Virus record (IMG/VR): IMGVR_UViG_3300021254_000021
Coordinates: 188,373 to 252,372 of that record
DNA length: 64,000 nt
From: a virus
Lineage: Duplodnaviria > Caudoviricetes
Reading direction: 5' to 3' (one strand)
The position numbers and the translations under genes are program-made. The notes beneath the pieces were generated by a model that was given only the letters and a program-made list of their open reading frames with translations, was not told where the DNA came from and made no database searches. Positions 31,574 to 48,433 of the stretch are shown here, piece after piece. Each line of letters starts with the position of its first letter. The first letter of the stretch is position 1.

Positions 31574-31651
31574 GGGATTGAATTAATCCTTCAATCCCCC
31601 TGAGATCAATTTTACAGAAATTTTTAACCAACTTTTAAAAAGGAGTTGACC

Positions 31652-32476
31652 ATGTGCGGACTTACAGGAATCATTTTTGGTAAACATTCACGTTCATTTG
31701 ATGACTATGAGGAATTGAAGGAAATCTTTACTTCAATGTTTATCCTCTCTGAGCAAAGAGGCCGTCATGCCTCTGGTTTGGCTACACTGGATACCACAGG
31801 TAAAACACACCTTTACAAACTTCCTGTCCCACCAACTAGAATGGTTAATTTAGCAGGGTTTAATAAAATCCTTAATACGGTAAACAATAAAACAACTCTC
31901 TTAATTGGCCATTCCAGATGGAAAACGGTTGGGTCTGAGTATAACAATAATAACAATCAGCCAATTATTTCTGGATCAATCTTGGGTACACACAATGGGA
32001 CAATCTCTAATGCCACAGCTCTTTTTGCTCGTTATCAGCTAAAGAGATTGGCCGAGGTTGACTCCGAAGTTCTTTTCCGTATGGCAGATGCTTCTTTACA
32101 GGAAGGAACATTAAACACTGTGACCTACAAGAATTACTTGGCAGAGTGTCAAGGTGATCTTTCATGTGTCTTTGCCTCTAAGGCAGACCCAAAGTGTGTG
32201 TACTTATTTAAAGGATCTAAACCACTATTCCTCTATTACAATCCTCGTTTGCAGGTAATTATTTATTCATCTAATGATGCTTACATTGATGCTTCAATCG
32301 TGGATTCAGATGGTTGGTTTCCTTTAAAGATGCCCGAAAACAGAATGTATCAGACTTGCTTTGACGACTTTAAAAATGTTGTCTCTGACTCATTTACCTT
32401 TATGCGTAATCAGCCTATAAGCAATTACGTCAAAAAGAAAAGTAAACCACAGCGTTCCCTCTTTGTTGAATATTAG
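31652..32476 (+). CDS. class II (Ntn) glutamine amidotransferase
   Basis: N-terminal MCG, RG..ASG, GHSR..T.G, N.QP, HNGTI.N, DSE. Confidence 0.9.
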   Translation: MCGLTGIIFGKHSRSFDDYEELKEIFTSMFILSEQRGRHASGLATLDTTGKTHLYKLPVPPTRMVNLAGFNKILNTVNNKTTLLIGHSRWKTVGSEYNNNNNQPIISGSILGTHNGTISNATALFARYQLKRLAEVDSEVLFRMADASLQEGTLNTVTYKNYLAECQGDLSCVFASKADPKCVYLFKGSKPLFLYYNPRLQVIIYSSNDAYIDASIVDSDGWFPLKMPENRMYQTCFDDFKNVVSDSFTFMRNQPISNYVKKKSKPQRSLFVEY

Positions 32477-32545
32477 GGGATAGAGAATTTAACTTAATTC
32501 CCCTCGAACCAATTTTACAAAAATCTTTCACAAAAGGAGTTGAAG

Positions 32546-33127
32546 ATGAGGACATTAAACGTGTTTGTTTATGGTACATTGATGAGCGGTTTTAGAGCTA
32601 ACTCTTTTATCCCAGAAGGATCAAAGATGCTTAAAGGAAGGATAGCAGGTAATCTTTACCACTATGCGGCAGGATTCCCCATTGTTGAAATTCTTAAACA
32701 TTCCCAGTCCGTCAGAGGCACACGAAATTACTCACTTGACATTGATGTGCAGGACAGCTTAAATCGTAATGAACCTGAATGCTTGCCGTTTGATTTAAAC
32801 TATGGCCGTGTGCATGGTGAACTTTATATGATTCCTTGTGAAGATGAGGAAACAGTATTGGACACTTTAGATAGCTATGAGGGATTTACCCCAGAGTCCG
32901 ACTATAATCTTTATAACCGTACTTTAGTCCCAGTAGAGACAGAGGAAGGAATTATTTGGGCTTGGATTTACAATATGGAAACAATCCCAAATGCCACCGT
33001 TCAAATTCTCTCTGGTAATTGGCGTGACTGCTTCTACTCTAATCGTGGTGGTTTACGTCCAGAGGTAAACAGAGCTATCCAAAAGAAAACCTTGTTTACA
33101 GAGGATAGTGATGAATATGACTTTTAA
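32546..33127 (+). CDS. gamma-glutamylcyclotransferase (GGCT/AIG2-like)
   Basis: VFVYGTLM.G, V.GELY, LD.YEG, Y.R, AW.Y. Confidence 0.9.
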   Translation: MRTLNVFVYGTLMSGFRANSFIPEGSKMLKGRIAGNLYHYAAGFPIVEILKHSQSVRGTRNYSLDIDVQDSLNRNEPECLPFDLNYGRVHGELYMIPCEDEETVLDTLDSYEGFTPESDYNLYNRTLVPVETEEGIIWAWIYNMETIPNATVQILSGNWRDCFYSNRGGLRPEVNRAIQKKTLFTEDSDEYDF

Positions 33128-33281
33128 GTGTGTCACCTAAATGAAAAGATCAAAAAGTTAAATTAAGGTATAGAGGCTCTGCTAAGATTTAGCAGAGCCT
33201 CTTCTTTTAAGGGGATGAAAAAGTTAAATTAAATCCCCTCGAACCAACTTTACAAAAATCTTTGACCAAAAGGAGTTAGCT

Positions 33282-33731
33282 ATGACTATGAATGAAACAT
33301 TGAAACAGGCGATTGCAGGATTTGTTGCTCTTAATGGTGCTTCCTTAAATTCAGAGGAAGGTGAACAATGGGCAAGTGAGTATGGCTTAGATGTTTCTGA
33401 CTATAGCAATAAAGAAGAAATCTCATCCTTCTTTAAGGCTATTACATCCTTTGACAAGGATGATAAGTACATCTCACAAGATTTCCTTATCCGTAATTGT
33501 CCCGTAGTTACTCCAGATTCCTATTATGTTTCCCTATTTAAGAAGTTTGAGATTAAGCGAGTGGTTATGACAACGGAAACAAAATCTTGCTTAATTTCAT
33601 CCCTTATGGTTAATGGCTATAAGGCAGAGTCCGTTAAGATTGAACTCACAAAGTCTTGGGGAGAGGATAATTATTGGGCTGATCGAAATAAAGCTCAATA
33701 CGGACATGGTATTCTGCTGACAATCGACTAA
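33282..33731 (+). CDS. hypothetical protein
   Basis: behind repeat element + RBS. Confidence 0.7.
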   Translation: MTMNETLKQAIAGFVALNGASLNSEEGEQWASEYGLDVSDYSNKEEISSFFKAITSFDKDDKYISQDFLIRNCPVVTPDSYYVSLFKKFEIKRVVMTTETKSCLISSLMVNGYKAESVKIELTKSWGEDNYWADRNKAQYGHGILLTID

Positions 33732-33811
33732 CCCATTAAGGGGATGGGGAATTAAGTTAAATTCCCCTGACACTAAATTTACAAAAATCTTTGACCAAAA
33801 GGAGTTTAGTT

Positions 33812-34153
33812 ATGGCACAGTTCAAAACACAGGCTCAGTTAGTTTCTGCTCTCCGTGAACAGCTCTCCACCAATACTTCACAAGCTCTGAAAGCTCTGGT
33901 TTTCCTGTTTAATCGTCAAACAGAAGATGAGAAATTACATGAGCATACCAAGTACTTTAACACTGTTGGCTTCAATCACAATGATGCCAAGCGGCTTACA
34001 GCAATGGCCAAACAGTATTTGGCCACGGGACATCTCACCTCTTATCAGATGGTTGTTTTAATGAGGCTCGTTCCTAAGTATGCCCGTCAACTTATCCTTC
34101 ATTCCTTAGCCACAGGGAAAATCCGAAAGGAAAATGGGTATTATGTGTGGTAG
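33812..34153 (+). CDS. hypothetical phage protein
   Basis: RQT.DE...T...N.VGF...DA..L...KYARQL pattern. Confidence 0.7.
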   Translation: MAQFKTQAQLVSALREQLSTNTSQALKALVFLFNRQTEDEKLHEHTKYFNTVGFNHNDAKRLTAMAKQYLATGHLTSYQMVVLMRLVPKYARQLILHSLATGKIRKENGYYVW

Positions 34154-34345
34154 TTAGAGGGAAGGAAATTCCTTCCCTTTTCCCCTCACACCAAATTTAC
34201 AAAAATTTCTCTTAAAAAGTTTCAACTTTTACCCTAGCGGTTATTCGTTGGGGTGATGGTTAAAGCCTTTTAAGGGGATAGAGTTAATTCCTTAAATCCC
34301 CTCGAACCAATTTTACAAAAATTTCTTTTCCAAAAGGAGATAGTT

Positions 34346-35680
34346 ATGCCTAGTTATGTTCGTATCGTTCATCGTGGTCGTGGTTTTAACGTTCGTGTAG
34401 AGCTTCCTGATGGTAGCACTCGTTTGGTCAATGTGAATGATCTTCAAAACTGGACACAGGTTGAGCGTAATGCGGATGCTACTCCCTTTGTTCGTACACG
34501 TCACACAGCTTCTTCTGCCCATGAAGCTGTAGAATCGGCCCCGGCAGAACGTAACTACATTCGTATCCTTCATAGAGGCCGTGGCCATCATGTCCGTTTG
34601 CTTCTGCCTGATGGTACAACTTACTTAGCTAGAACGGAAGATTTGCCCAACTGGACTTATGTGGGTGATACCAATGCTGAAATTCCCACATTGGAAAGAG
34701 CTAATATAAGTCACGGTTTTGTCAATCCGACAAACCAAGCGGATCGTATCTATGACAGCATTACCCGTCATGGTTCTCGTAACACTACCGTTCAATTGCA
34801 GAATGGTGAACGGGTACACGTTCCCAATGAGCTTATGAGTACATGGCTTCGTCGTGGCTCAAGTGCTTATGTGGATTGGGATGAATCAAATAATTATCCC
34901 AATGGCCGTGAAATGAGACACCTCACTTTTGGTGTTGAGTTGGAATTTGTTGCTAATCCTGACAAATTCGATCAATTCTGTGATGCTATGATTCAAGCTG
35001 TTGGTAGCACTAAATTCTCCCGTCCTAATCCTAACAGCCTCACTTATGGTCAATCCTCTACAACCAAATGGGTATTGGGTTATGATGGCTCTGTCCGTTC
35101 TACTCGTCCCCGTGAATACAAACGTGGTTATGAGCTGACTAGCCCAATTCTGAAATTTGATGAAGCGTCAAAACAGGAATTGGCAACGGTATTACACCTA
35201 ATTACCACAATCTTTGAAGGTATTGTCAATAAGACTTGCGGTACTCATGTTCATGTTGGCAATTTCACTCGTATTCAAAACACCTATGAGTTCCGTAATA
35301 AGGTTTTGAATTTCCAAAAGAATTACGGTGCTTTTGAGGAAAAGGTGTTTGATCGTCTGGTTTCCCCGTCCCGTAAAGGCAATAACAACCATTACTGCAA
35401 ATCGTGCAATACCAATTACATTGATGGTCGTTATTACAAAATGAATGCTCAAAACATCTTTGGTTTTGGCACTCTGGAAAATAGACAGCACCAAGGCACG
35501 TTGGAAGTCAAAAAGATTTGGTCATGGATGGAGCTTAATGGCAAATACATGATTAAATATTTCAAAAATCCTTCCAACTTCTGCGATACTTACCTGTCAA
35601 TGGAAGAGTTCTTTGAAAAGATTGAACTTTCCAATGAGGCACAGCAGTTCTTCTTTAGCCGTGATGCCGAGCTGAACTAA
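34346..35680 (+). CDS. putative amidoligase (COOH-NH2 ligase) with N-terminal repeats
   Basis: TFGVELEF, DGSV, ELTSP, CGTHVH, RY, TLENRQH.GT. Confidence 0.85.
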   Translation: MPSYVRIVHRGRGFNVRVELPDGSTRLVNVNDLQNWTQVERNADATPFVRTRHTASSAHEAVESAPAERNYIRILHRGRGHHVRLLLPDGTTYLARTEDLPNWTYVGDTNAEIPTLERANISHGFVNPTNQADRIYDSITRHGSRNTTVQLQNGERVHVPNELMSTWLRRGSSAYVDWDESNNYPNGREMRHLTFGVELEFVANPDKFDQFCDAMIQAVGSTKFSRPNPNSLTYGQSSTTKWVLGYDGSVRSTRPREYKRGYELTSPILKFDEASKQELATVLHLITTIFEGIVNKTCGTHVHVGNFTRIQNTYEFRNKVLNFQKNYGAFEEKVFDRLVSPSRKGNNNHYCKSCNTNYIDGRYYKMNAQNIFGFGTLENRQHQGTLEVKKIWSWMELNGKYMIKYFKNPSNFCDTYLSMEEFFEKIELSNEAQQFFFSRDAELN

Positions 35681-35741
35681 GCGTGTGAGGGGTTACAAAC
35701 CCCTCTTTAAATAACTTACTTTAAATCATAAGGAGAGAGTT

Positions 35742-36107
35742 ATGAAGATTCCACAGAGAGAAGCAGAGATTATTAAACATGCCTACTGTCACCTACATGA
35801 TGCCTACCATAACATTCAATGCCTTTATTCATTCCTAAAAAAGGAATATCCCAAAGAGGCAACTATTGAATACACTGTGCTATTAAATGGTCTTTTGCGG
35901 ATGCAGGAAATAGAGGCTATTATGAATGTAACGTTAAATTATCCTGTCTTTGGTAAAGAGATAGAAATGACGGATAAAGACCGTTTAAGAGATTTACTGC
36001 ATAATACTTTGGGTGTAAATGCTTATGGTTACTTAGATCCAAATGCAGGAGATGATGTCCCTGATTGTGTTTCCTTAGACTTACACCTGTACGAAATGCA
36101 CTTTTAA
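35742..36107 (+). CDS. hypothetical protein
   Basis: strong RBS. Confidence 0.65.
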   Translation: MKIPQREAEIIKHAYCHLHDAYHNIQCLYSFLKKEYPKEATIEYTVLLNGLLRMQEIEAIMNVTLNYPVFGKEIEMTDKDRLRDLLHNTLGVNAYGYLDPNAGDDVPDCVSLDLHLYEMHF

Positions 36108-36154
36108 TTTAATTCCCCCCATGTATGGGGGGACACTACATACATGGAGCAAGT

Positions 36155-36476
36155 GTCAACTACCAACCCGCTAAAGCGGGTTGGCTTGTAACTGACCTGT
36201 AGCTCTTGATCGAGTTTTTGAGACTCTACTACGTTTTTTACCAATCTTCTTTTCAGTAGATTGGCTGTCGTTACATCGTGGGGTGATTGACTGCACCCCG
36301 TAGGCTTAAAACATGTTTAAGACCCACTTAAACTTGAATCTTGGTGTTTAAGTTTAGAGAGTGCCTTCAGTCCAAGTACCAAACGGTTTTCTCCCTAAAT
36401 AAATTTTTTACTTGACTTAAAGATTTAAGTCAAGTTTTTACATTCCTCTCACGTGGCTAAAGTCATGTGGGTTTTC
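36155..36476 (-). mobile_element. non-autonomous IS200/IS605 derivative (no ORF), probably retaining a TnpB omega/reRNA scaffold
   Basis: GTCAACTACC-AACCCGCTAAAGCGGGTT end and CATTCC-TCTCACGTGGCTAAAGTCATGTGGG end; internal hairpins. Confidence 0.65.
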
Positions 36477-36489
36477 AACGAGGGTTCTT

Positions 36490-37377
36490 ATGAAGCAGAA
36501 CGTTGAGTATACACTGGTCAATGAAGAAAACTTTTCCACTGTAATAAGCCATCTTAAATCAGTAGATGGCATAATGGGCTTTGACACAGAGACAAACAAA
36601 GATGGGTCAATCCACTTCATTCAACTCTATTCCCCAGTATCTAATCAAACCTTTATCTTTAATGGGGATGATCCTCAAATAAAACTCTTACTGGATATAT
36701 GGGAAAGTATTAACGTTGTTGGGCACAATGTTCAATTCGACTTAGCCAACTGTTTAAAGCAATATGGAAGTTATCCAAACCCTGTTGCCGACACCTTTTT
36801 ATTAGCCTGTTCCTTACAGGAAGATCAAAAAGGATTAAAGCCACTGTGTAACCAATTCTTTGGTTTCCCTATAACCACTTGGGAAAGTCTTTTTAATGAC
36901 TATGACTATTCTGATATGACTGGCGAAAAATGGCACTATGTAGCAAATGATCCTTATTACACTTACTTATTATTTGAACATTACAAGCAGTTAGGTGCTT
37001 ACCGTTTTGTTAAAAAGGTACATGAGATAGACATAAAGGCGATGATTCAATACATGGAAGCCTCTGTACTAGGTTTGCAGATTGATCAAGAGAAATTTGC
37101 ACAATATCTTGAGCAATATACCAACCAAGTGAATGACTTACAGACCAAGTTAAATGAGTATGCAGGATGGGAAGTGCGAACAACATCCACCAAAGATCTA
37201 AAGAAATTATTGTTTGAACAACTAGAGCTACCCACACCACCCATTACCACAGAAAAGGGGGAAGTGAGTGTTTCCAAAGAAGCTCTTAGCTATGTACCTG
37301 ATAAGGATGGTGTTATCACACTTATCACCCAGATTAAAGAATCCCGTTCGGTCTTAGCCTCCATGAAGAATCTTTAG
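36490..37377 (+). CDS. polA: family A DNA polymerase, N-terminal part (3'-5' exonuclease + thumb)
   Basis: ExoI GFDTET, ExoII GHNVQFD, ExoIII YVAND, thumb S.KDLKKLLFEQL.LP...T.KG..S. Confidence 0.9.
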   Translation: MKQNVEYTLVNEENFSTVISHLKSVDGIMGFDTETNKDGSIHFIQLYSPVSNQTFIFNGDDPQIKLLLDIWESINVVGHNVQFDLANCLKQYGSYPNPVADTFLLACSLQEDQKGLKPLCNQFFGFPITTWESLFNDYDYSDMTGEKWHYVANDPYYTYLLFEHYKQLGAYRFVKKVHEIDIKAMIQYMEASVLGLQIDQEKFAQYLEQYTNQVNDLQTKLNEYAGWEVRTTSTKDLKKLLFEQLELPTPPITTEKGEVSVSKEALSYVPDKDGVITLITQIKESRSVLASMKNL

Positions 37378-37468
37378 GGGATAAAGTTAAATCCTTAAAT
37401 CCCCTGACACCAACTTTATAAAAATTTTCCCCCTAAATGGGGATGTCTCCCTTTAAAGGAATTGAAAC

Positions 37469-37729
37469 ATGACAAAAAGCCTAAACGTTGAAATCTTTAA
37501 TAACAACACTTTCCTTCAGTGGTTTCCTGCTACATCCATTAAAGATGTACTGAGCTTTATTGCTAGGTATGAAAAGATAGAGCGTATGTCTGACATTAAA
37601 CTTTCTTATCTGGTTTTTCAGCAATCGAACAATGGTAGGTATAAAGGTCTTTCTGGCCGTTACACAAAAGTGTGTAGCATTCATGCTACGGGTAACGAGA
37701 AACCCAAATTCTTTGATTTGATTCAGTAG
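37469..37729 (+). CDS. hypothetical protein
   Basis: RBS AAGGA; behind repeat element. Confidence 0.6.
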   Translation: MTKSLNVEIFNNNTFLQWFPATSIKDVLSFIARYEKIERMSDIKLSYLVFQQSNNGRYKGLSGRYTKVCSIHATGNEKPKFFDLIQ

Positions 37730-37816
37730 AGACCATTAAGGGGATAAAGTTAATTCCTTAAATCCCCTGAGACCAATTTTACAAAAATCTTTAACCAACT
37801 TTAAAGGAGAAAAAAC

Positions 37817-37975
37817 ATGACAGTAAAAGAGTTGATTGAAATCTTAAAAACATTTAACGAAGATTATGAAGTTGTTGGGCCATGTAAAGATGGTTCTGAA
37901 TGGATTCAATGTGAAATGTGTGAATCTGATTTTACACAGGATGACAACGAAAAGGTAATGTACATTTCAAAATAG
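37817..37975 (+). CDS. small hypothetical protein (52 aa, MTVKELIEILK...)
   Basis: read from sequence; strong RBS AAGGAG; below ORF-track cutoff. Confidence 0.7.
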   Translation: MTVKELIEILKTFNEDYEVVGPCKDGSEWIQCEMCESDFTQDDNEKVMYISK

Positions 37976-38036
37976 TCAACTGTAAACTATTTATTGGATG
38001 GAAACATTCCATCCAATAAATCAAAAGGAGAAAAAC

Positions 38037-39032
38037 ATGAGTAACAACAGTAATTCCAACATCTACCTCAACCTTGACATCCTTCGTTTTATGCCACCTT
38101 GCAGGACTAATCGGGATGAAAATAACCGTCCAAAAACTATTATAATAAATGGCGGAGAACGTCTTTTCATTTCATCACAATGTATTAAATCCTGTCTTAG
38201 AAGTCAATTCGGCCTTCAGATGGATGTAGATAAAGACAAACTTATTGAAGATATAAAGGAATGTAATAAAGAGTATAAAGAGGAAGACTTACAAAAGAGT
38301 TTTTACCTCTCAGAAAGTTTTGTGAAAGATCTTATTAAAAGTAAAGATAAGGGTGGAGATAATGTTGTATTATTTATGTCCTTTAAGGAATTAGTCGAAA
38401 CATATAAAGCTAAAAAATTAATTTGGTGTAAGAAATTTCCTGCCATAGACATTTTTGGAAGAATGTATGCTTCTGATGAAGATGCTAAAACGGAGGCTGT
38501 TTCTCAAATAGCTCCTGCATACTCTGTCCAAGATGTTACTGTATTAGTTGATTTATGGGTTTGCCGTAACTCTTTGACAGATAAGAAAGGGTGTACAACT
38601 ATGGGTAATAATGAATTGTTATCTTCATTAGTTTACTTTAATGCGAATCTAAATCTATCCGAACTTCTTAATCGAGGATATTCTAAAGAGACAGTAATTT
38701 ACCTAGCTAAAACGTTTACAATGGGTATGTACACTTTGCGTCTTAATTCTGGTGTTTCTGGTACTTCTCATAACACCCTTCCATCTTATTGCCATATAAC
38801 AATAGGTAATGTCCTTCCATTAAATCATTCTTCTTTATTCTACACTTCCCCAGATAAGGATCATGTGATAGAGGAAAGTATTAGTAAGCTAAAGGAGAAA
38901 ATTGAGAAGGATAATAATGCGTTAAAGGCAATCAACTCATTCTATGGAAATCCAACGAGGATTGATTCCTTTGAGTTTAATCCAGATAACTTTACCTATT
39001 TACAAAACTCATTAAATTCAATGCTTGAATAA
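38037..39032 (+). CDS. cas7: type I-E Cascade backbone Cas7 (Cse4/CasC)
   Basis: PPCRTNRDENNRPKT...ISSQCIKS.LR, DIFGRMYA, EA..QIA.A.S. Confidence 0.92.
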   Translation: MSNNSNSNIYLNLDILRFMPPCRTNRDENNRPKTIIINGGERLFISSQCIKSCLRSQFGLQMDVDKDKLIEDIKECNKEYKEEDLQKSFYLSESFVKDLIKSKDKGGDNVVLFMSFKELVETYKAKKLIWCKKFPAIDIFGRMYASDEDAKTEAVSQIAPAYSVQDVTVLVDLWVCRNSLTDKKGCTTMGNNELLSSLVYFNANLNLSELLNRGYSKETVIYLAKTFTMGMYTLRLNSGVSGTSHNTLPSYCHITIGNVLPLNHSSLFYTSPDKDHVIEESISKLKEKIEKDNNALKAINSFYGNPTRIDSFEFNPDNFTYLQNSLNSMLE

Positions 39033-39067
39033 ATAGGAAACGTAGATTCTACCTAAGAAATTTTAGT
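39004..39067 (+). promoter_or_regulatory. CRISPR leader 1 (identical 64 bp to leader 3 at 41918-41981)
   Basis: AAAACTCATTAAATT...AGATTCTACCTAAGAAATTTTAGT abutting the first repeat. Confidence 0.85.
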
Positions 39068-39392
39068 GTAATTCCCCCATATAGGGGGATGTTCCTTTGG
39101 ATTCTCACTGAGTTTCCTTATGAAATCCGTAATTCCCCCATATAGGGGGATGTTCCCCTGCGGACAAACGCTTTGTGGTGCGTGTGCATTAGTAATTCCC
39201 CCATATAGGGGGGATGTTCCTATTATGGCTAGGACGGAAGCAATGTCCTTATAGTAATTCCCCCATATAGGGGGATGTTCCCAAGTTAGGTATGTGCTGT
39301 TTTCGTGGTAACAAGTAATTCCCCCATATAGGGGGATGTTCCTAGATTCTACCTAGATATTTTTAGTGTAATTCCCCCACACATAGGGGATC
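39068..39392 (+). CRISPR. CRISPR array 1 (type I-E), repeat GTAATTCCCCCATATAGGGGGATGTTCC
   Basis: repeats at 39068, 39129, 39192, 39254, 39315, degenerate 39368; spacers 33, 35, 33, 33, 25 nt. Confidence 0.97.
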
Positions 39393-39408
39393 TTTATTTG
39401 GAGGTTAT

Positions 39409-40179
39409 ATGCTTTCTGTTTTAACCTTAACTTTTGATTCTTATATTCAGTCTTTTGGAGAGAACTCTATTATAGCAAAACATAGAGACTCTGGTGACTT
39501 GCCTACTAAGAGTATGGTAATAGGAATGATTCTTAATGCTTTAGGGCATGATAAATACTCTGATGATCCAGACTCTAAGTGTTTACCAGAGGTATGGTCA
39601 AATAAACTTAGATTTGCTACTAAGAAGTTATACAAAAGAGATGCTTATAAAAAGACGGATTACTGTATAGCTAGGCGGAATGATAAAATTAAAGAGAATG
39701 ATGTGATAAAAAAAGATTACATTATCAATGGCAAATACCATGTTTACTTAGAGGGAGATAATGCTGATATAGTATATATTGCTAAAGCTCTTTTAAATCC
39801 TAAAAGACAGCTATATCTTGGACGTAAATGCTGTGTTTTACAAGACAGTTTGTGTTGGGATAAAAGAGAGACTAAGCCTACTATTACAGAGAATGTCCGT
39901 ATTGAGGATGTCATATTTAAAGATGTGAATCTAACGAAACCATTTCCTACTCATCTTATAGAAGGCGGAGATATAGCTCTATATAAGAAAAAGACTCTTA
40001 GTGAGGAAGGGAAACATTGTTTAGACACTGTGTTAGGCGGTAAAATGTGGAAGCCCACATTCTTCATAAAGAAGAAAACGACTCCATTGCAATTCGATAA
40101 ACAGTTATGGGGTGATATGCTTTGTTACTCTATAACCTATATGAAGTACAATGACTTAGAGGAGATTGAAGATGAATAA
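39409..40179 (+). CDS. cas5: type I-E Cas5 (CasD)
   Basis: IQSFG...R.S...PTKS.VIG.I.NALG; LYLGRKCC. Confidence 0.92.
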   Translation: MLSVLTLTFDSYIQSFGENSIIAKHRDSGDLPTKSMVIGMILNALGHDKYSDDPDSKCLPEVWSNKLRFATKKLYKRDAYKKTDYCIARRNDKIKENDVIKKDYIINGKYHVYLEGDNADIVYIAKALLNPKRQLYLGRKCCVLQDSLCWDKRETKPTITENVRIEDVIFKDVNLTKPFPTHLIEGGDIALYKKKTLSEEGKHCLDTVLGGKMWKPTFFIKKKTTPLQFDKQLWGDMLCYSITYMKYNDLEEIEDE

Positions 40180-40771
40180 TGAAACATTGCTTACTGTAAT
40201 AGATGTATCTCATTCTTCACGATATGCAGAGATAAAAGAAAATATGGATATTCTGCATGGTATTATATACTCAGCATTTTATCCCCATAAGGATGAAAAG
40301 AAATTATACCAGTGTGATGCAGAACAAAAAGAGATTAGGATTTTGTCTAATAAAGCACCTAGTAAAAGTCACTTAGTAGGCGAGTTCGATATTAGCTTTG
40401 ATGATATTCATATTTACGATTACTCTACTAGACTTAATAACATGACAGAGAAGAAGGTGTGTGATTTTATGTTGATTGGAAACCCTGTTTATAAACAGGA
40501 TGGACGGAGACTCCCTATTAAGGATAAAGAAGGGTGTGTGAAATGGCTGTTTGATAAGTCTAAGAATTTGGGGTTCATTATAAAAGACATAGACACTTCC
40601 TACATAGCTCCATATATAGGTAAAAATAACATTAAATTAAATACCGTACAGTTTAATGGTGTTTTAGAGATAACAGACTCCACCTTATTCAAGAATACAA
40701 TCTTAACAGGTATAGGGCATGAAAAAGGATTCGGGTTTGGTCTGCTATGGGTAGAAAATAAAACTCATTAA
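40172..40771 (+). CDS. cas6e: type I-E Cas6e (Cse3/CasE)
   Basis: LH..I..AF, F.L.GNP, V.F.G.L.ITD, GIGHEKGFGFGLL. Confidence 0.93.
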   Translation: MNNETLLTVIDVSHSSRYAEIKENMDILHGIIYSAFYPHKDEKKLYQCDAEQKEIRILSNKAPSKSHLVGEFDISFDDIHIYDYSTRLNNMTEKKVCDFMLIGNPVYKQDGRRLPIKDKEGCVKWLFDKSKNLGFIIKDIDTSYIAPYIGKNNIKLNTVQFNGVLEITDSTLFKNTILTGIGHEKGFGFGLLWVENKTH

Positions 40772-40822
40772 ATTGGAGTATTGGGTAAATAGAAACCGAG
40801 ATTCTACCTAAGAATTTTTAGT
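40760..40822 (+). promoter_or_regulatory. CRISPR leader 2
   Basis: homologous to leaders 1, 3, 4. Confidence 0.85.
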
Positions 40823-41073
40823 GTATTTCCCCCGTACAGGGGGATGTTCCTTAGTGGGCACTGAAAAAATATCTTTTTAATAAGTATTTCCCCCGTACAG
40901 GGGGATGTTCCTGTTCGCACCGTTTATAAATAAAGCTGTAATCGGTATTTCCCCCGTACAGGGGGATGTTCCTTTAAGGGTCGAAATGCCTTTAGTGCAA
41001 GGTGCGTAATTCCCCCTATATGAGGGATGTTCCTTTTCGACATTAATAATTCCCCCATATAGGGGGATGTTCC
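40823..41073 (+). CRISPR. CRISPR array 2, repeat GTATTTCCCCCGTACAGGGGGATGTTCC
   Basis: repeats at 40823, 40884, 40945, variants 41006, 41046; spacers 33, 33, 33, 12 nt. Confidence 0.97.
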
Positions 41074-41104
41074 GGGAGAGTTTCCATTTTAAAGGAGTTT
41101 AAAC

Positions 41105-41914
41105 ATGAGCGAAACACAGTTTAAAACAATACATCCAGAATATAAGATTGTTGGGTTTGATGGTACATCCCGTGTTTATTCTGGCAATCCCTCTTTATCC
41201 CAGATACCCAAAATTCTGCGTCATGCTGTTATTCCACATGAGGGTAACAAGTTTATGTATGTAGATTTGAAAGCGGCAGAAGTTTACATTCTTTGCAAAT
41301 GGGCTAAGTGTCAGGTGCTTATAGAGGCTTATGAGAATGGACAAGACCTCTACACCTTTATAGCCCAGACAGTCTTACATAAACAGACGATTGATAAGAA
41401 TGAGCGAGATACAATGAAGGTGGTGGTGCTTTCCATTCTCTATGGATCAGAGGGAAGTAGTGCGGCGAGGGCTCTACACATTACAGAGGAAGAAGCTAAA
41501 GCACTGGTAGATAAATTCATGTTTGCTTTTCCAGAGATTGCACAGTTTCAAGCTAATGCCTATGCTTACACTGTAGCTCACGGATACACTCAATCCTTTT
41601 ATTTTCGTCCTCGTATTCTTAAAGAGGATCAGTCTAATGGAGATGCTTCACGTAAAAGACAGTGTGTGAATAATGCTGTGCAGAATACGTGTGCAGACTG
41701 TCTTAAAATCTGTATTGGACAGCATGATAGAAAATCACCCATAAAGTTTATTACCACAGTCTTTGACTCTGTACTGTTTGAAGTACCACAGGACTTCACC
41801 ATAACTCAAGCTAAAGACTTCCTTTCCACCTTCTTTAAACCATGTGCCCCATTTAACTTTAGGTATGAGTATGCATTAGGGCAGACTTGGGGCGAGGCTC
41901 AAGATCAGCTTTAA
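41105..41914 (+). CDS. polA: family A DNA polymerase, C-terminal part (palm/fingers)
   Basis: TSRVYSGNPSLSQIP, motif A YVDLKAAE, motif B R...K...SILYG, N..VQ.T.AD..K, motif C TVFDS; own RBS AAGGAG. Confidence 0.92.
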   Translation: MSETQFKTIHPEYKIVGFDGTSRVYSGNPSLSQIPKILRHAVIPHEGNKFMYVDLKAAEVYILCKWAKCQVLIEAYENGQDLYTFIAQTVLHKQTIDKNERDTMKVVVLSILYGSEGSSAARALHITEEEAKALVDKFMFAFPEIAQFQANAYAYTVAHGYTQSFYFRPRILKEDQSNGDASRKRQCVNNAVQNTCADCLKICIGQHDRKSPIKFITTVFDSVLFEVPQDFTITQAKDFLSTFFKPCAPFNFRYEYALGQTWGEAQDQL

Positions 41915-41917
41915 AAT

Positions 41918-41981
41918 AAAACTCATTAAATTCAATGCTTGAATAAATAGGAAACGTAGATTCTACCTAAGAAATTTTAGT
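41918..41981 (+). promoter_or_regulatory. CRISPR leader 3
   Basis: identical to leader 1. Confidence 0.85.
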
Positions 41982-42129
41982 GTATTTCCCCCCCCCATAT
42001 AGGGGGGGATGTTCCTGATGCGTCCAGTGCATCATTATCTCATTTTTAGTGTATTCCCCCTATACAGGGGGATGTTCCTAGCGTTGCGGTAGACCTGATT
42101 AGTGATTTCCCCTATATGGGGGATGTTTT
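41982..42129 (+). CRISPR. CRISPR mini-array 3
   Basis: repeats at 41982 (expanded C9/G7 runs), 42051, degenerate 42102; spacers 35 and 23 nt. Confidence 0.9.
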
Positions 42130-42179
42130 GCTGTAATTAAATCCCCACAGACCAACTTTACAAAAATTTGGAGAGACTT

Positions 42180-44417
42180 ATGCCAACTACAGACCTTATA
42201 GAGGAAAGGACATATTCCTTTAATCTTTCAGACAAACCGTGGGTATTGGTAACAACAGAGAAAGGAAGTACAAAGAGACTTTCTTTAAGAGAGGTGTTTA
42301 GTCAAGCTGAGAACATTATTTGTCTTTCCAATGAGAATGTGTATGTAGATGCTTCTATAACCCTTTTGCTTTTTGCCATTCTCTATACAGCATATAGTAG
42401 AAATGCAGATACAAAAGATATGGATCAGGATGAGTTTACCTATCGTAAAGATGTTATTTTGGATTATTTAGATTCTGTGCATGACAAGTTTGATTTGTAT
42501 GATGCACAATATCCTTTCATGCAGATTCGAGAGGATTTTAAAGTAGAAAATGCCCCTTGTACTAAAGAAATTAAAGAAAGATCTAAACATGTTGGGTACG
42601 AGAAGGTTTCTAAGTCAAACTCTCTTAGAGCTAAAGGTAAAGAAATAAAGTGTTTGAATCCGTTTTCATCCTCATCCCATAAATCCTCTCAATGGTCTTT
42701 AAAAGAGGATTATACGGATGATTGGATAGCCCGTCACCTTGTTACATACAGACTCTTTCATTTGTCAGCGTCTGCGGCAAGAGGAGATTCTATTACGATA
42801 AAGGCGGGTGTTTTAACAAAAAATATTTCTCTAATGTTTATTACTGGTGAGACTCTGGCTGATCTATTCCATCTTAACTTTAAAGAAAAAAATCTTGGAA
42901 AGGAGATGCACCCTATATGGGAGCAGGATCAGGAAGCAGAAGATGCTTATATAAATAGTAAGGTATTTTTTGATAAAAAAGAAGGTGTTTATTATGATGC
43001 TTATTCTGATCATGCAGATATAGCTAGGATATTAACTTACAGTAATGTTTATATCAATATAGACCCATATAAAAAAGAAAAAGAATTTAGACAGTGCTAT
43101 CGTCTGCCAATAAAGTTGTTTAGTATTAGATCTAATTCCGATGGTAAAGACTCCTCAATGTATGATTGGTCATATCTTAGTGAAAGATTAAATATCTTTT
43201 GTGGCAATCTGGACAGAAACTCATACTCAATACAAAAAGAGATTCTATGGGATTCTGATAATGAGTCTTTAATTAAAGCAAAGTACATTTCTTTAGTGCG
43301 TACACCAGAATTAAATGATCAAAATTCCACTTACACACAACTATTCACAAAACCAATAAATCTTATTGGAAATGGTTTACTTAAAGTTGATACACAGGAT
43401 GATGACCATAAAGAGTACATACGAGATCTCTTTACTAAGTTATGTGGTACACTTGAGGCGTCAGAAAATAAATTTAAAAATAGGTGTGATATTGCTTTAA
43501 AACAACTCTTTAACAAAGATGACCCAAAGAAGAATAAAGGAAACAAGAAAAAGGAAACGATTTCAAAGATATATGAAAGTATTCATGTATCAGATTCCTC
43601 TTATGCAGAAACCCAATTCTTTGATTTCATTACATCAATAGCAGAGAAGCTATCGGATGCAAACTTACTAGAAAAAGAGGAGAATGCACTAAGTAAAAGG
43701 GTATATGCTCATTACCTAACTTCGTATAAAAACTTTATTAAAGACTACTGTCCCAAGCTGTACTTCTTACTAAGCGACAAACTAACACTAGGAGTAAATA
43801 CAATGAGTAAACTCGAAACTATAAAAGCTATATCCACAAATACTTATGCCTGTATGAAAGCTAACTTTAAAGACTTAGTACAGCTAAGAAGTATGCGGCA
43901 ATGTAAATATGTCCCAGACTTAAATTTAGAGGGCTTTCGTTTATTCTCGAATGGTGGAAGGAGAGATCACTATATGAAGGAAGGTATTAAATATGCTTTA
44001 TATTTGTGGTCAAACCACCAACATAAAATGGGTGATGGTTATGCAGGAGTTATTATAAAAGAAGACTTTATAAAGGAAACCACAAGCTACAAGAATACCT
44101 TTGGGTATGTGATGTATAAGTTAAGACCATTCTACACTGAAGATGAATGGAAAAGCAAACTACATAAATATGAATTAGCCTCACATAACATAGATAGGCT
44201 TGCCAAATTCATCCTACTTACTACTAAAGAGGCTTTAGACCATAATATAGATGTTCAGTTAGACTATGGCCGTCTTGCCTATTTCTTTACTCGAATCTTA
44301 GAGAATACAGGTAATACACATGAGTTTCTTGAAGATGTTATGGTAGGGTTTTACTTAGCTAAAGAGGAAGTAATTTCTCGTACAGGGGAATGTTCTGAGG
44401 AAAGTGAAACTCATTAA
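42180..44417 (+). CDS. cas8e: type I-E Cas8e (Cse1) fused in frame to Cas11 (Cse2)
   Basis: FNLSDKPWVLV, FDLYDAQYPFMQ (Cse1); C-terminal YALYLWSNHQ, TFG, LDYGRLA (Cse2-like). Confidence 0.88.
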   Translation: MPTTDLIEERTYSFNLSDKPWVLVTTEKGSTKRLSLREVFSQAENIICLSNENVYVDASITLLLFAILYTAYSRNADTKDMDQDEFTYRKDVILDYLDSVHDKFDLYDAQYPFMQIREDFKVENAPCTKEIKERSKHVGYEKVSKSNSLRAKGKEIKCLNPFSSSSHKSSQWSLKEDYTDDWIARHLVTYRLFHLSASAARGDSITIKAGVLTKNISLMFITGETLADLFHLNFKEKNLGKEMHPIWEQDQEAEDAYINSKVFFDKKEGVYYDAYSDHADIARILTYSNVYINIDPYKKEKEFRQCYRLPIKLFSIRSNSDGKDSSMYDWSYLSERLNIFCGNLDRNSYSIQKEILWDSDNESLIKAKYISLVRTPELNDQNSTYTQLFTKPINLIGNGLLKVDTQDDDHKEYIRDLFTKLCGTLEASENKFKNRCDIALKQLFNKDDPKKNKGNKKKETISKIYESIHVSDSSYAETQFFDFITSIAEKLSDANLLEKEENALSKRVYAHYLTSYKNFIKDYCPKLYFLLSDKLTLGVNTMSKLETIKAISTNTYACMKANFKDLVQLRSMRQCKYVPDLNLEGFRLFSNGGRRDHYMKEGIKYALYLWSNHQHKMGDGYAGVIIKEDFIKETTSYKNTFGYVMYKLRPFYTEDEWKSKLHKYELASHNIDRLAKFILLTTKEALDHNIDVQLDYGRLAYFFTRILENTGNTHEFLEDVMVGFYLAKEEVISRTGECSEESETH
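43803..44417 (+). CDS. cas11: Cas11/Cse2 from putative internal in-frame start (204 aa)
   Basis: AGGAG at 43790-43794, 8 nt before in-frame ATG (MSKLETIK...). Confidence 0.7.
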   Translation: MSKLETIKAISTNTYACMKANFKDLVQLRSMRQCKYVPDLNLEGFRLFSNGGRRDHYMKEGIKYALYLWSNHQHKMGDGYAGVIIKEDFIKETTSYKNTFGYVMYKLRPFYTEDEWKSKLHKYELASHNIDRLAKFILLTTKEALDHNIDVQLDYGRLAYFFTRILENTGNTHEFLEDVMVGFYLAKEEVISRTGECSEESETH

Positions 44418-44468
44418 ATTTGAGGATTGTGTAAATAGAAACCGAGATTCTACCTAAGAATTTTTAGG
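44407..44468 (+). promoter_or_regulatory. CRISPR leader 4
   Basis: closest to leader 2. Confidence 0.85.
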
Positions 44469-44741
44469 GTATTCTCCCTATACAGGGGGATGTTCCTAAC
44501 CCGTAAGTGTTGGGATCGGTTCGTTACACGTATTCCCCCTATACAGGGGGATTTTCCTCTTAGTGAGGTATGAGAATGAATGAATTTGACGTATTCCCCC
44601 TATACAGGGGGATGTTCCGGTGATGCCAAAGCTGAAATAAAACTAAAGAATAGTATTCCCCCTATACAGGGGGATGTTCCTAGACTTCCCAGTCTTTCGC
44701 GTTTCACACCTTTGTACTTTCCACTGTACGGGGGATGATAA
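44469..44741 (+). CRISPR. CRISPR array 4, repeat GTATTCCCCCTATACAGGGGGATGTTCC
   Basis: repeats at 44469, 44530, 44591, 44653, degenerate 44714; spacers 33, 33, 34, 33 nt. Confidence 0.97.
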
Positions 44742-44774
44742 AAGTATTTAACCAACTTTAAAAGGAGACAAGCA

Positions 44775-47456
44775 GTGTTGAGTATTTCAAGAGAAATTCT
44801 TGGTAAAAAAGAAGGGGATGCTTCTTTATCTTTACAATACCACCTTAATGATGTGGCAACCGTAGCGGAGTTTCTTTGGGATAAATGGTTATGTTCAGAG
44901 ACAAAGAAAGAGATAGAAGCTGTTTTCCCTCAAGCGAGATCCTTTCTTTTACTTTCCTGTTACCTACATGACTTAGGCAAAGCCTCTACGGATTTCCAAG
45001 ACCGACTTCTCTCTGGTAGTAGAAATGGTATAGATCATGTTACTTTAACTAACTTTATGTTGTCTGATTATGTGGAATCCTTTATTGGAAAGAGTAAAGG
45101 AAGGAAATTATTGGAAGATAGTTTCCTTCGTGAGGTGCTTTCATATCATCATGGAATACTAGCCCTTATCCATTTAACACAAACTCTATCTACGTCAGAA
45201 GGTGTAAAAGAGGAAACGTTTAAAAATCAAAGGTATATTCAGTTTAGCCAGACTTGCTTATATATAGAGTCTCTTTTAGAAGAATTGAATTTATCAAAAG
45301 ATATTCTTACACTACCACGTAAAAGTATTCCTTTTTATGTACGAGACACTTTATCAGGATTGTTAATTATGTCAGACTGGTTAGGTAGTACCGTACAGTT
45401 GTTTCCTTACAATGATTTACCTTATGAGGATAGAAAAAAGAGGGCGTTAGATCAGCTTAATAATCTCCTAGTCAATACTTCGATAAAGAAATTTGAATCA
45501 CAGGAAACCTTCTTTTCAGAAGTATTTGGTTTTGAACCTAATGCTTTACAAAAGTCTGTATTTTCTGTGGATGTTTCCTCTAAAAGATTAGTATTTATGG
45601 AGGCCCCAACAGGACATGGTAAAACAGAGGCGGCTATAACTTTAGCTTATCGTTATTGTGATCTTACTGATAGAGGTATTTATATAGCAATGCCCACCAG
45701 AGCTACCAGTAATGCCTTATATAACAGAATCAGCGGCTTTATAAAGAAGGTGTATAATAACCCAGAGATGTGTAAGTTGTATCATTCTAAAGCAGACCTC
45801 TTCTTTTATTCTAAAGGTGATGATGAATGTAAAGAAGATATGGATATGCCTAGTTGGGTATTAGACCATTTTTTCAAATATAAGCTAACTAATGCGAGAA
45901 AGTTTATTCTTGGTACAACAGACCATGTATTAAAGATGTGTATGAATGTTAAACACTTTACTATGCACCATGCTTGCTTAGTAAATCATGTTATTGTGTT
46001 TGATGAGGTACACTCTTATGATGATTGTATGTTTTCATGTCTCTGTGCTTCATTAGCCCTTTTAGCAAAGTATAAAGTCCCCGTTATTATTCTGTCAGCA
46101 ACCATGCCCGATGAAAAGAGACAACAGCTTATAGAGGCGTATGGCAGAGATATGTCTTTGTGTCTTAATGCTTATCCCAAAAGTGAATCTATTATAGACG
46201 ATGATATAGTAGTGAGAGTTAAAGAGAAGGAAAAGAATAAAGTAGTATCTTTTGACCTTTCCTTACAACCAGAGTATTGTCCACCAACAGAACATGAAAA
46301 AGATGCAAGGGCTATAATAAATAAAATAAAGTCTTTAGGTAGCACTGGTTATTATGGCGTTGTTGTAAATACAGTGGACAGATCACAGGATTTTTATGAC
46401 TTCTTTACAGAGGAATTTGGTAAAGATAATGTCATTCTTTTGCATTCTCGAATGGTTGCCGAGCATAGAGAGGCAATAGAAAAGAACCTTATTTCCTCTT
46501 TAGGTAAAAAAGGGTTTAGTAAAAGAAAAGAGGGGAACTATTTTAAGGTAGTTATTTCTACTCAAATTGTTGAGCAGAGTATAGACATAGACTTCGACTG
46601 TTTGTTTACAGACTTGTGTCCAATGGATGCTTTAGTTCAAAGAGTGGGGCGACTGCATAGGCACAGTCAGAATGATTCTTATAGACCTAGAACATTAAAG
46701 CAACCATTCTTTTATGTAATGCAAGCCTATTCTAAAGTACAGAAGGAGGATGGTCTAGTTTCTTATATAACCGACTTTTCTAATTGTACAGACAATTATG
46801 CTAATCTTATTTATTCCCCGTACTTGATGCTTGCTACTTATGCAGAACTGATCTCTCTTAATGGTAAGTTAGATACCGTTACAGAAACAGAGAAGGTAAT
46901 AAAAGGAGTATTTAATTTTAACGCTGATAAGAGCTTATTTGGAAAGTCTTTAATGCAGATTCATTCTGAGTATGCTTTAGATAAGAGTGCTACGGAACAT
47001 GATACATACAAGGATATGTTTATAAAGTCGGAAGATCTTAAAGACTTTAAAAAGTATTTAAATAAGAATAAGAGTTTCTTGTTAGAAACAGGTTTAAATG
47101 AAGTCAAGGACGGAGAAGTCCGAGATACATTACCATCATTAGAAGTAATTATGCTTAATAAACAAATAGATGAGTATGGTAATACCACATATACCTCATG
47201 CTTTGATGGTTCTGTACTGCATACTTTTAGTAAAGAGGAAACAGATTTCCATACAATAAACCTACCCACTAAGATTGTTCGTAAAAGTGGTGGGATAAAA
47301 GCATTAAGGGAGAAGTTAAAAAGTATGAAACCTGAGAGAGTAAAGTTAAACAGATCTCCGTATTTAGTGTTTGAAGATGCGGAATTACTACCTTTACAAG
47401 ATACTGGAATAACTCTTTGGTATGATAGGGATAAAGGCTTAATGATTTGTGGCTAA
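44775..47456 (+). CDS. cas3: Cas3 HD nuclease-helicase
   Basis: HL.DV, LHDLGKA, HHG, SDW.GS; APTGHGKTEAA, DEVH, SAT, QRVGRLHRH. Confidence 0.96.
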   Translation: MLSISREILGKKEGDASLSLQYHLNDVATVAEFLWDKWLCSETKKEIEAVFPQARSFLLLSCYLHDLGKASTDFQDRLLSGSRNGIDHVTLTNFMLSDYVESFIGKSKGRKLLEDSFLREVLSYHHGILALIHLTQTLSTSEGVKEETFKNQRYIQFSQTCLYIESLLEELNLSKDILTLPRKSIPFYVRDTLSGLLIMSDWLGSTVQLFPYNDLPYEDRKKRALDQLNNLLVNTSIKKFESQETFFSEVFGFEPNALQKSVFSVDVSSKRLVFMEAPTGHGKTEAAITLAYRYCDLTDRGIYIAMPTRATSNALYNRISGFIKKVYNNPEMCKLYHSKADLFFYSKGDDECKEDMDMPSWVLDHFFKYKLTNARKFILGTTDHVLKMCMNVKHFTMHHACLVNHVIVFDEVHSYDDCMFSCLCASLALLAKYKVPVIILSATMPDEKRQQLIEAYGRDMSLCLNAYPKSESIIDDDIVVRVKEKEKNKVVSFDLSLQPEYCPPTEHEKDARAIINKIKSLGSTGYYGVVVNTVDRSQDFYDFFTEEFGKDNVILLHSRMVAEHREAIEKNLISSLGKKGFSKRKEGNYFKVVISTQIVEQSIDIDFDCLFTDLCPMDALVQRVGRLHRHSQNDSYRPRTLKQPFFYVMQAYSKVQKEDGLVSYITDFSNCTDNYANLIYSPYLMLATYAELISLNGKLDTVTETEKVIKGVFNFNADKSLFGKSLMQIHSEYALDKSATEHDTYKDMFIKSEDLKDFKKYLNKNKSFLLETGLNEVKDGEVRDTLPSLEVIMLNKQIDEYGNTTYTSCFDGSVLHTFSKEETDFHTINLPTKIVRKSGGIKALREKLKSMKPERVKLNRSPYLVFEDAELLPLQDTGITLWYDRDKGLMICG

Positions 47457-47527
47457 TTGAGGGATGAAAAATCCGTTTCATTTCCCATGACACCAACTTT
47501 ACAAAAATTTTCCAAAAGGAGACAACC

Positions 47528-48103
47528 ATGAAAGGGACAAAACAGAATTTCATTAGAGTAAATCATAGAAAAGACATCACTCCATTGCAGGAAATGATGA
47601 TTGACCAATTCCTAGAGAGTACACATTCCAACCTAAAGGAAAGATCAAAGCAGACTTACAAGGTGGATCTTAGAAGCTATCTTCTTGGCGACAACAGAAA
47701 TGCAAGGTTAATTAAACGTTTTACAAATTGGCTTAGTCAAAACAGAATAACCTTGGTTGAAAGGAAGGTGACACCACAGGAAATTGAAGAGTTGACAAAC
47801 CTCTTAAACCGTATCTCTGATGTTTCCTCAAACAACACTATTGTTACTAAAGATGGAGACAAGGTTATGGGTAATTGGGTAAATGGAATACTGGGGATAA
47901 ACAAAGAGGAGATAGGGGAATACAAAGCCTTTACCTTCTGGGTTGATTATGGCGAGGAAGCAATACCCGAGAATTTCAGCATAGTGATTACCAAAGATAG
48001 TCTTTACAATGCCTTTATGGCAGAGATAACCTTACAGGAGATAAAAGATTTCATTAAAGACTTTAACGTAGTTGAGACAAACCCATTGTCCGATTACCTC
48101 TAA
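47528..48103 (+). CDS. hypothetical protein (N-terminus weakly like an integrase core-binding domain)
   Basis: F.....LKERSKQTY..DLR.YL; no catalytic domain seen. Confidence 0.6.
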   Translation: MKGTKQNFIRVNHRKDITPLQEMMIDQFLESTHSNLKERSKQTYKVDLRSYLLGDNRNARLIKRFTNWLSQNRITLVERKVTPQEIEELTNLLNRISDVSSNNTIVTKDGDKVMGNWVNGILGINKEEIGEYKAFTFWVDYGEEAIPENFSIVITKDSLYNAFMAEITLQEIKDFIKDFNVVETNPLSDYL

Positions 48104-48215
48104 CCTAAAGCCCCACTTTGTTGGGGCTTTTTTAGTTTAATGGGATGGAAAAAAGAATCATTCTCCCCTCGCGCCAATTTTACAAAAATATTTAACCAAC
48201 TTTAGAGGAGACACC

Positions 48216-48356
48216 ATGATTAAGAATACAGTTTTTGCTCTTTTCCTTATTGCTTGCCTCTTTGTCCTGTTCACCAATGTTGGTTTTGAGACAGCTCTGG
48301 CTATAGTAGGTAGGGGTCTGGATATGATGATTGCTTATGTCAGCCATATTCCCTAA
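48216..48356 (+). CDS. small membrane protein (46 aa)
   Basis: RBS GAGGAG; hydrophobic MIKNTVFALFLIACLFVLF. Confidence 0.6.
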   Translation: MIKNTVFALFLIACLFVLFTNVGFETALAIVGRGLDMMIAYVSHIP

Positions 48357-48433
48357 ATTGGGTATGTTCCTTTATGTGGGAGTTTCCTTTTTCCTGATTC
48401 CCCTTCGTACCAACTTTAAACTTTTTAAGGAGA

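Follow-up and report, generated by a model that had tools for sequence, protein, structure and literature searches.

The DNA considered here is a window of 64,000 nucleotides, bases 188373-252372 of the 252,372-bp IMG/VR virus record IMGVR_UViG_3300021254_000021, a Caudoviricetes genome whose completeness is estimated at 94%. It carries the gene for a family A DNA polymerase in two pieces, polA-N and polA-C (Table 1). Pieces of a CRISPR-Cas system lie between the two and again after the second. A first-pass annotation, made from the sequence alone, had taken the locus to encode a two-subunit Pol A created by insertion of the CRISPR block. The two-subunit enzyme is supported by conservation, selection, the catalytic residues and a model of the complex; the CRISPR origin is refuted.

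The two polA genes and their break point

In polA-N, residues 12-164 match the Pfam family DNA_pol_A_exo1 (E 1.6e-14, 54.5 bits, cut-off 23.6) and residues 201-286 match positions 2-86 of the DNA_pol_A profile. The latter match scores 31.0 bits, under the cut-off of 34.3, as is to be expected because it covers only 85 of the 381 profile positions. The same profile is taken up in polA-C at positions 104-357 of 381 (E 1.6e-37, 129.8 bits, cut-off 34.3). On these domain matches we assign the split pair to the family A DNA polymerases (PF01612 + PF00476). PHROG 17, a DNA polymerase profile, is matched by polA-N at positions 648-935 and then by polA-C at 961-1233, and the halves are therefore colinear. 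Fused homologues also exist. An exhaustive search with polA-C returned P0040 (594 aa (amino acids), 57% identity), P0042 (568 aa, 53%) and dozens of further proteins 555-590 aa long. When the halves are aligned to P0040, the last residue of polA-N falls on position 317 and residue 9 of polA-C on position 331; about five residues, all of them linker, are lost between the two.

Everything that the first-pass annotation had read at the junction was borne out. It had described polA as two clean open reading frames (ORFs) with almost no residues missing, and both are free of frameshifts. The translation of polA-N ends in ...LITQIKESRSVLASMKNL (also given as ...ITQIKESRSVLASMKNL) before its stop, and polA-C begins with MSETQFKTIHPEY...GTSRVYSGNP behind a ribosome-binding site (RBS) of its own, AAGGAG at 41091-41096, nine bases before the ATG. 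The TAG of polA-N does overlap a GGGG...CCCC element (TTTAGGGGAT...ATCCCCT), and motif C does read VFDS (TTVFDSVLFE, against QVHDELVFE in Klenow). That intein and intron signatures are lacking, as it had also claimed, is taken up below with the alternatives.

The exonuclease domain ends at about residue 164, and polA-N continues to residue 295, which is approximately residue 546 of Taq polymerase. Profile positions 189-287 of the N half align with Taq 440-538 and residues 20-265 of polA-C with Taq 570-830, so the break lies near Taq 546-551. In the subdomain layout of Taq, the thumb passes back into the palm at this point. The fused P0040 was modelled with AlphaFold2 (predicted local distance difference test, pLDDT, 92.3; predicted template modelling score, pTM, 0.92). 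In the model a helix at 297-320 leads into an irregular linker at 321-328, followed by two short strands, and the linker is its lowest-confidence ten-residue block, at 73. Since the break positions 317-323 fall at the helix end and in this linker, the break sits in a flexible linker. It comes directly ahead of the strand with the TxRxY ("TGR") motif and of motif A.

The catalytic residues are preserved on both sides of the break. In the exonuclease, D32, E34, D101, Y150 and D154 (Exo I DxE, Exo II D, Exo III YxxxD) are invariant in 43 sequences. In polA-C, D54 and E59 of motif A (Klenow D705 and E710) are invariant in 29 sequences; R101 and K105 of motif B (Klenow R754 and K758) are likewise invariant, and its YG is kept. 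The position of Klenow F762 is occupied by leucine, which has been discussed at this position for several phage subfamilies (Czernecki et al., PMC10201439). In motif C, D221 corresponds to the catalytic aspartate D882 of Klenow and is kept, while H881 and E883 have become Phe and Ser. The whole of V219-F220-D221-S222 is invariant in 29 clade members of 31-100% identity. As these include fused as well as split forms, VFDS is a signature of the clade rather than a mark of decay. The polymerase of the actinophage Margaret, which infects Gordonia, reads VHDA, the Glu being gone there too.

Selection on the two halves is strong and similar. For pairs with unsaturated synonymous divergence (dS), the ratio of non-synonymous to synonymous divergence (dN/dS) is 0.01-0.07 for polA-N and 0.00-0.09 for polA-C. 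Amino-acid identities of the N and C halves go in step (81/85, 77/77 and 71/71%), and neither half has a frameshift or an internal stop in any of 11 genomes. Relaxed selection, for which the annotation had suggested looking, is not seen: dN/dS stays below 0.1 in both halves and they diverge at the same rate.

It had also proposed modelling the halves together. In ESMFold2, polA-N with polA-C reached an interaction prediction score from aligned errors (ipSAE) of 0.91, against 0.00 for the best of three controls. The ipSAE mark applied is reached by 58 of 80 solved complexes and by 2 of 110 mismatched pairs, counts that are only rough here because we supplied our own alignments to the complex model. 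Three runs agreed in at least 94% of contacts, with a partner pLDDT of at least 86, and the new termini are in contact in the model (N 288-295 with C 6-13). Since the chains are two pieces of a well-known solved fold, the pass may reflect their likeness to solved polymerases. What the model shows is a pair that still resembles a single polymerase; it does not show that these particular copies bind each other.

Relatives and the contents of the gap

Close relatives of the phage were found among ENA, JGI and Logan metagenome contigs, all of them as contigs encoding homologues; searches of viral-contig loci with polA-C and with the alignments gave no close relatives. One relative's record is labelled "bovine.metagenome", and the study labels XIEF21, LIJU20 and TONG22 presumably stand for cattle and buffalo gut catalogues. 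Against cultured phage records, megablast with window 36000-48000 gave no match, and protein searches gave only polymerases at <=28% identity.

Homologues of polA-N form 37 stand-alone clusters (51-99% identity, 90-100% coverage), all of 294-302 aa and nearly all ending in ...MKNL. Ten relatives have enough sequence downstream of polA-N to be informative (L006, L009, L012-L015, L020-L022 and the NCBI record of P0019). Every one of the ten has a separate polA-C gene of 267-277 aa on the 3' side, at a distance that varies from 7 nt to 4.1 kb.

The most telling of these is L012. Its DNA is 97% identical to the window over 36489-37810, 95% over 41086-41919 and 96% over 47516-48762, and its proteins are 99-100% identical. 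It has the same two polA ORFs, with four small ORFs unrelated to the cas block in the gap, and no cas genes. Where the window has cas7 to array 2, L012 has ORFs of 152, 98 and 54 aa unrelated to them, the last directly 5' of its polA-C; in place of array 3 to cas3 it has a GmrSD_N-like gene. Homology resumes exactly at the polA-C RBS (41086) and stops just past the stop codon (41919). Judged from this alignment, the cas blocks are recent replacements on either side of an untouched polA-C.

Other relatives carry other cargo. The gap holds a DUF6036 gene in L013-L015, four ORFs of unassigned function in L009 and five ORFs in L006, one of which (407 aa) matches homing and HNH endonuclease PHROGs (E ~1e-9). 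For ten gap genes of relatives PADLOC reported nothing, and PHROGs only this endonuclease-like gene of L006; in the gap of the window Pfam and PHROG find no free-standing homing endonuclease. L020, L021 and L022 (66, 57 and 68% identity) have adjacent halves, with gaps of 28, 10 and 7 nt. The reading frames of the two differ, and each half has a stop, RBS and start of its own. In a tree built from the N halves, support for the split clade (29 rows) is 100/99 and none of the fused forms falls within it. Taken together, L012, the other cargo forms, the adjacent forms and the fused outgroup make the following history the parsimonious one: a fused gene, then adjacent halves, then changing cargo, and finally the cas modules found here. 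That the CRISPR block made the split, as first proposed, is refuted by the same break in the cas-free L012 and by halves only 7-28 nt apart in L020-L022.

Two distant contigs deserve mention. L017:1-1543 and L018:235-1122, from distant members of the VFDS clade, are likewise apparently split close to this point. The halves of L017 are 46 nt apart, and in L018 the C part begins about 15 residues earlier with no N half directly upstream. Each case is a single contig, at 37-38% identity, and they may be independent fissions or assembly errors.

The order of genes in the window is polA-N, 86-aa ORF, 52-aa ORF, cas7-array-cas5-cas6e-array, polA-C, array-cas8e-array-cas3 (Table 1). With cas genes on both sides, polA-C stands within the cas gene set and not beyond an inserted block. 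The 86-aa ORF has no Pfam or PHROG match. The GGGG...CCCC element at the polA-N stop occurs 21 times on the plus strand and once on the minus strand of the genome, each time just 5' of an RBS and ATG. It is an ordinary gene end here and not specific to the polA-N junction.

Table 1. Features at the split polA locus (window coordinates; all on the plus strand)
Feature	Position	Strand	Remarks
Structured non-coding insertion, 335 bp	36155-36489	+	between ancestral RBS GGAGCAAGT and polA-N ATG
polA-N	36490-37377	+	295 aa; 3'-5' exonuclease and first ~95 polymerase-domain residues, to end of helix before break
Intergenic element (hairpin GGGGAT...ATCCCC, then CCAAYTTTAYAAAAAT)	37373-37428	+	overlaps polA-N stop; second copy 37736-37791
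86-aa ORF	37469-37729	+	also in L012; conserved left edge of gap
52-aa ORF	37817-37975	+	homologue of L012 54-aa ORF, 40% identity, E 2e-7
Cargo block 1	37998-41085	+	cas7-array 1-cas5-cas6e-array 2; L012 has 152-aa and 98-aa ORFs there
cas7	37998-39032	+	cargo block 1
CRISPR array 1	~39068-39343	+	cargo block 1
cas5	39409-40179	+	cargo block 1
cas6e	40166-40771	+	cargo block 1
CRISPR array 2	~40823-41074	+	cargo block 1
polA-C	41105-41914	+	269 aa; TxRxY strand and motifs A, B, C (palm, fingers)
Cargo block 2	41920-47515	+	cas7 3' tail copy and leader, array 3, cas8e, array 4, cas3; L012 has GmrSD_N-like gene there
cas7 3' tail and leader copy	41918-41992	+	99% identical to 39004-39078
cas8e	42168-44417	+	cargo block 2, between arrays 3 and 4
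cas3	44775-47456	+	cargo block 2, after array 4

The 335-bp insertion in front of polA-N is not in L012, the relative with 97% identical DNA. It is strongly structured: its predicted fold has a minimum free energy of -101 kcal/mol (z-scores -5.1 and -5.8), it has no Rfam match, and further copies lie at G000:184455-184599 and L020:14799-15079 (intergenic). It may be a mobile structured element.

In window 37998-47456 a type I-E-like system is arranged in units of a gene, a leader and a mini-array; there are four arrays, each with 2-4 spacers. Its Cas8e is unusually long (749 aa) and there is no separate cse2. Copies of a 75-nt repeat, which consists of the cas7 3' tail and the CRISPR leader, stand behind both cas7 and polA-C; were they to recombine, cas5, cas6e, array 2 and polA-C would be lost together. 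The 12 full-length spacers (31-34 nt) have no other match in the genome or in the fetched loci of the relatives. A scan for sigma-70 promoters did no better than on shuffled sequence, and the terminator-like matches in the same region were mostly CRISPR repeats. No match to cas1 or cas2 was found across the whole 252-kb record. This lack suggested a link of the polymerase to CRISPR adaptation, an idea that we rejected since the split polymerase occurs in cas-free relatives.

Downstream of polA-C the relatives have a mixture of mobile-element and conflict genes (L006:17002-18459, L020:16206-16888, L022:11458-13800): TnpB (OrfB_IS605/Cas12f-like), a YafQ-like toxin, a GmrSD-like gene and an intein-containing RtcB. 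Upstream of polA-N (window 31593-35680, and in L009, L013 and L020-L022) lie genes for GATase_6, a GGACT-like gamma-glutamyl cyclotransferase and Amidoligase_2.

Interpretation and alternatives

The split polymerase is not the only one in the genome. About 45 kb upstream, outside the window, a single ORF of 1792 aa (G000:C1:175248-180623; L005:1249-6624) encodes another family A polymerase, whose motif C is the canonical IHDE and which, by inspection, contains four inteins, one of them with a LAGLIDADG domain. The inteins stand at or beside conserved motifs, among them the TGR motif and motif A. Homologues of this polymerase form about 28 clusters of 753-1978 aa, a range from which it follows that the intein load varies. 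For P0191, one of these homologues, and for P0009, a relative of polA-N, the longest contig is 225,887 bp in each case, and this match suggests that both polymerases co-occur in relatives. A search of the genome found no family B polymerase, and Pfam shows no evident replication module among the genes around the intein polymerase. The first-pass annotation had named another intact polymerase, able to do the job, as an argument against its own proposal. A second polymerase is indeed present, which bears that argument out in part, but the split halves remain under strong purifying selection, and for these two reasons together we regard the split enzyme as accessory and not dead. It is probably a conserved accessory polymerase rather than the main replicase.

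We therefore consider it likely that polA-N and polA-C are a family A polymerase split long ago, that its halves act as two subunits, probably in an accessory role, and that the cargo of the gap, the cas genes included, came later. The polA gene would have broken in two in an ancestor of large phages of cattle, buffalo and other metagenomes. The N half retains the proofreading exonuclease and the start of the polymerase domain, and the C half the catalytic palm and fingers; the two most likely associate without a covalent link to form one two-subunit polymerase. In early-branching or distant members the two genes are adjacent. In the sub-lineage of this phage, the gap and the space after polA-C would have become sites of accessory-gene turnover, both of which are filled in this genome by pieces of a type I-E CRISPR-Cas system. 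Lying between two cas modules, polA-C is probably transcribed with the cas genes. The enzyme itself belongs to a large, uncultured clade of polymerases whose motif C is VFDS throughout.

Several points weigh against this reading. The tree is poorly resolved within the split clade and does not decide the order of adjacent and gapped forms, which makes "adjacent first, cargo later" the parsimonious reading and nothing stronger. The homing-endonuclease-like gene in the gap of L006 could mean that an insertion caused the original break. The canonical His and Glu of motif C (HDE) are not found in polA-C, and the nearest cultured phage polymerases (~28% identity) read VHDE. With a second family A polymerase present, the split enzyme need not replicate the genome. 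Finally, the 335-bp insertion parts polA-N from its ancestral RBS and could lower its expression.

That a CRISPR-Cas insertion into an intact polA made the two-subunit enzyme in this very genome is the reading that the layout invites, with a cas7-cas5-cas6 module and two arrays between the halves and a block that ends exactly at the polA-C RBS. It is nevertheless extremely unlikely. The break is shared not only by L012, which lacks cas genes, but by nine more relative contigs (57-81% identity in the N half), with different cargo or no cargo at all. The last residue of the N half is constant across the clade, and polA-C lies inside the cas gene set. A decaying remnant, redundant beside the intein polymerase, would fit the presence of that second enzyme, the non-canonical motif C and the 335-bp insertion 5' of the polA-N start codon. 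We give this very little credence in view of the low dN/dS of both halves, the eleven genomes free of frameshifts and internal stops, a length kept over 37 clusters, and a VFDS motif that is invariant in fused forms too. It is less improbable, though still unlikely, that the halves no longer cooperate, polA-N acting as a free exonuclease and polA-C in some other role or in none. They are up to 4.1 kb apart in different transcription contexts, another polymerase is present, and motif C is unusual. Such an uncoupling would leave about 95 polymerase-domain residues in polA-N without obvious use in the absence of a palm, and it sits badly with equal rates of divergence, constant co-occurrence, invariant polymerase catalytic residues and a VFDS that is fixed in fused members as well.

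Another suggestion would be that transcription or translation is followed by a rejoining of the halves, through a split intein, an intron, ribosomal bypass or a frameshift. This group of phages is rich in inteins (four in the other polymerase and one in the RtcB of L022), and L006 has its homing-endonuclease-like gene in the gap. Yet Pfam finds no Hint or intein domain in either half, and Rfam, searched over window 35500-48500 at E <= 0.1, finds no RNA family and no intron ribozyme. The termini, ...MKNL and MSETQF, lack the Cys/Ser and His-Asn junction residues of split inteins. The gap content differs between near-identical genomes and has its own promoter-like elements and genes, and the adjacent forms are in different frames with a stop, RBS and start for each half. 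Rejoining thus appears highly improbable. An excisable element that would restore a fused gene was also considered and rejected, as the gap has no recombinase, the repeats at its edges are only RBS contexts, and the adjacent forms are out of frame.

One further role of the locus can be imagined. Since both halves must be kept, recombination within polA-N and polA-C between co-infecting relatives would swap whatever cargo lies between and after them. The conserved halves would then be the homology arms of a cassette-exchange site, and in this genome the polA-C mRNA would be freed by Cas6e cutting at the flanking repeats. We hold this to be possible, though rather doubtful. If true, the broken gene would be a place where defence and counter-defence cargo (cas, GmrSD-like, DUF6036 and homing-endonuclease-like genes) could insert without harm, and polA-C would in this genome be tied to the CRISPR transcript.

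The case shows that a family A polymerase can break within its polymerase domain, and not at the exonuclease/polymerase boundary alone, and stay under strong selection across a whole phage lineage. The putative series from fused to adjacent to cargo-separated genes would be a case of a gene break turning into a hotspot for accessory genes. An attractive story of CRISPR insertion is corrected, and attention is drawn to a large uncultured VFDS clade and to phages in which two distinct family A polymerases are maintained together.

Comparison with known split enzymes

We know other examples of phage enzymes encoded in pieces. In Aeromonas phages 25 and 44RR the PolB-type gp43 is split into 43A and 43B, and the polypeptides of phage 25 co-purify and are active (Petrov et al. 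2010, as reviewed in PMC2988022). According to that review this replicative-type polymerase has two cistrons; in some relatives the gap between them is short and free of translation, while others have a seg homing endonuclease inserted there, much as the gap varies here. In contrast, gp43 belongs to family B and has another break point; the cargo described here is far more varied, including half a CRISPR-Cas system, and activity of our enzyme is a prediction.

Closer by family is the PolA of the S-SBP1-like, T7-like cyanophages, whose exonuclease/polymerase gene fission was called the first in PolAs (Czernecki et al. 2023, PMC10201439). It too involves neither intron nor intein, and a predicted structure of its two products matches that of an unbroken relative on superposition and leaves the new termini exposed. 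The cyanophage genes overlap and are parted at the exonuclease/polymerase boundary; the break between polA-N and polA-C falls about 130 residues further on, within the polymerase domain, and the distance between these genes reaches 4.1 kb. The MEP401-type phages of OM43 have their polymerase as two genes; a small ORF of unassigned function lies in the gap, where neither an intron nor an endonuclease can be recognised (PMC10580990). They are another phage group, their gap is one small ORF, and the likeness drawn here is that of the two-gene layout.

The cultured Pseudomonas phage LUZ24 (L061) may be compared by its annotation, in which gp25 is a "DNA polymerase exonuclease subunit" and gp34 "DNA polymerase part II", 2.3 kb apart with eight small genes between them. 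Upstream of its polymerase pieces stands a set of ligase, amidoligase, glutamine amidotransferase and gamma-glutamyl cyclotransferase genes comparable to the one found here. Its first piece, as annotated, is an exonuclease of only 169 aa, and BLASTP of the LUZ24 polymerase pieces against polA-N and polA-C detects no similarity. The LUZ24 polymerase also has a group I intron.

Outside the polymerases, nrdA, a gene of phage Aeh1 for an essential enzyme, was split by the homing endonuclease mobE into nrdA-a and nrdA-b, and as far as the cited accounts go the pieces reassemble into an active enzyme (Friedrich et al. 2007, in PMC2988022; PMC3045599). Like polA here, it is an enzyme gene that encodes two polypeptides, one of the "genes in pieces". 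It differs in encoding a ribonucleotide reductase and in that the causal endonuclease is still present; in the phages described here an endonuclease-like gene occurs in the gap of L006 only. Split phage polymerases are already documented. What is new is that the break falls within the polymerase domain, together with the VFDS clade, the range of states that a single lineage displays, and the cargo.

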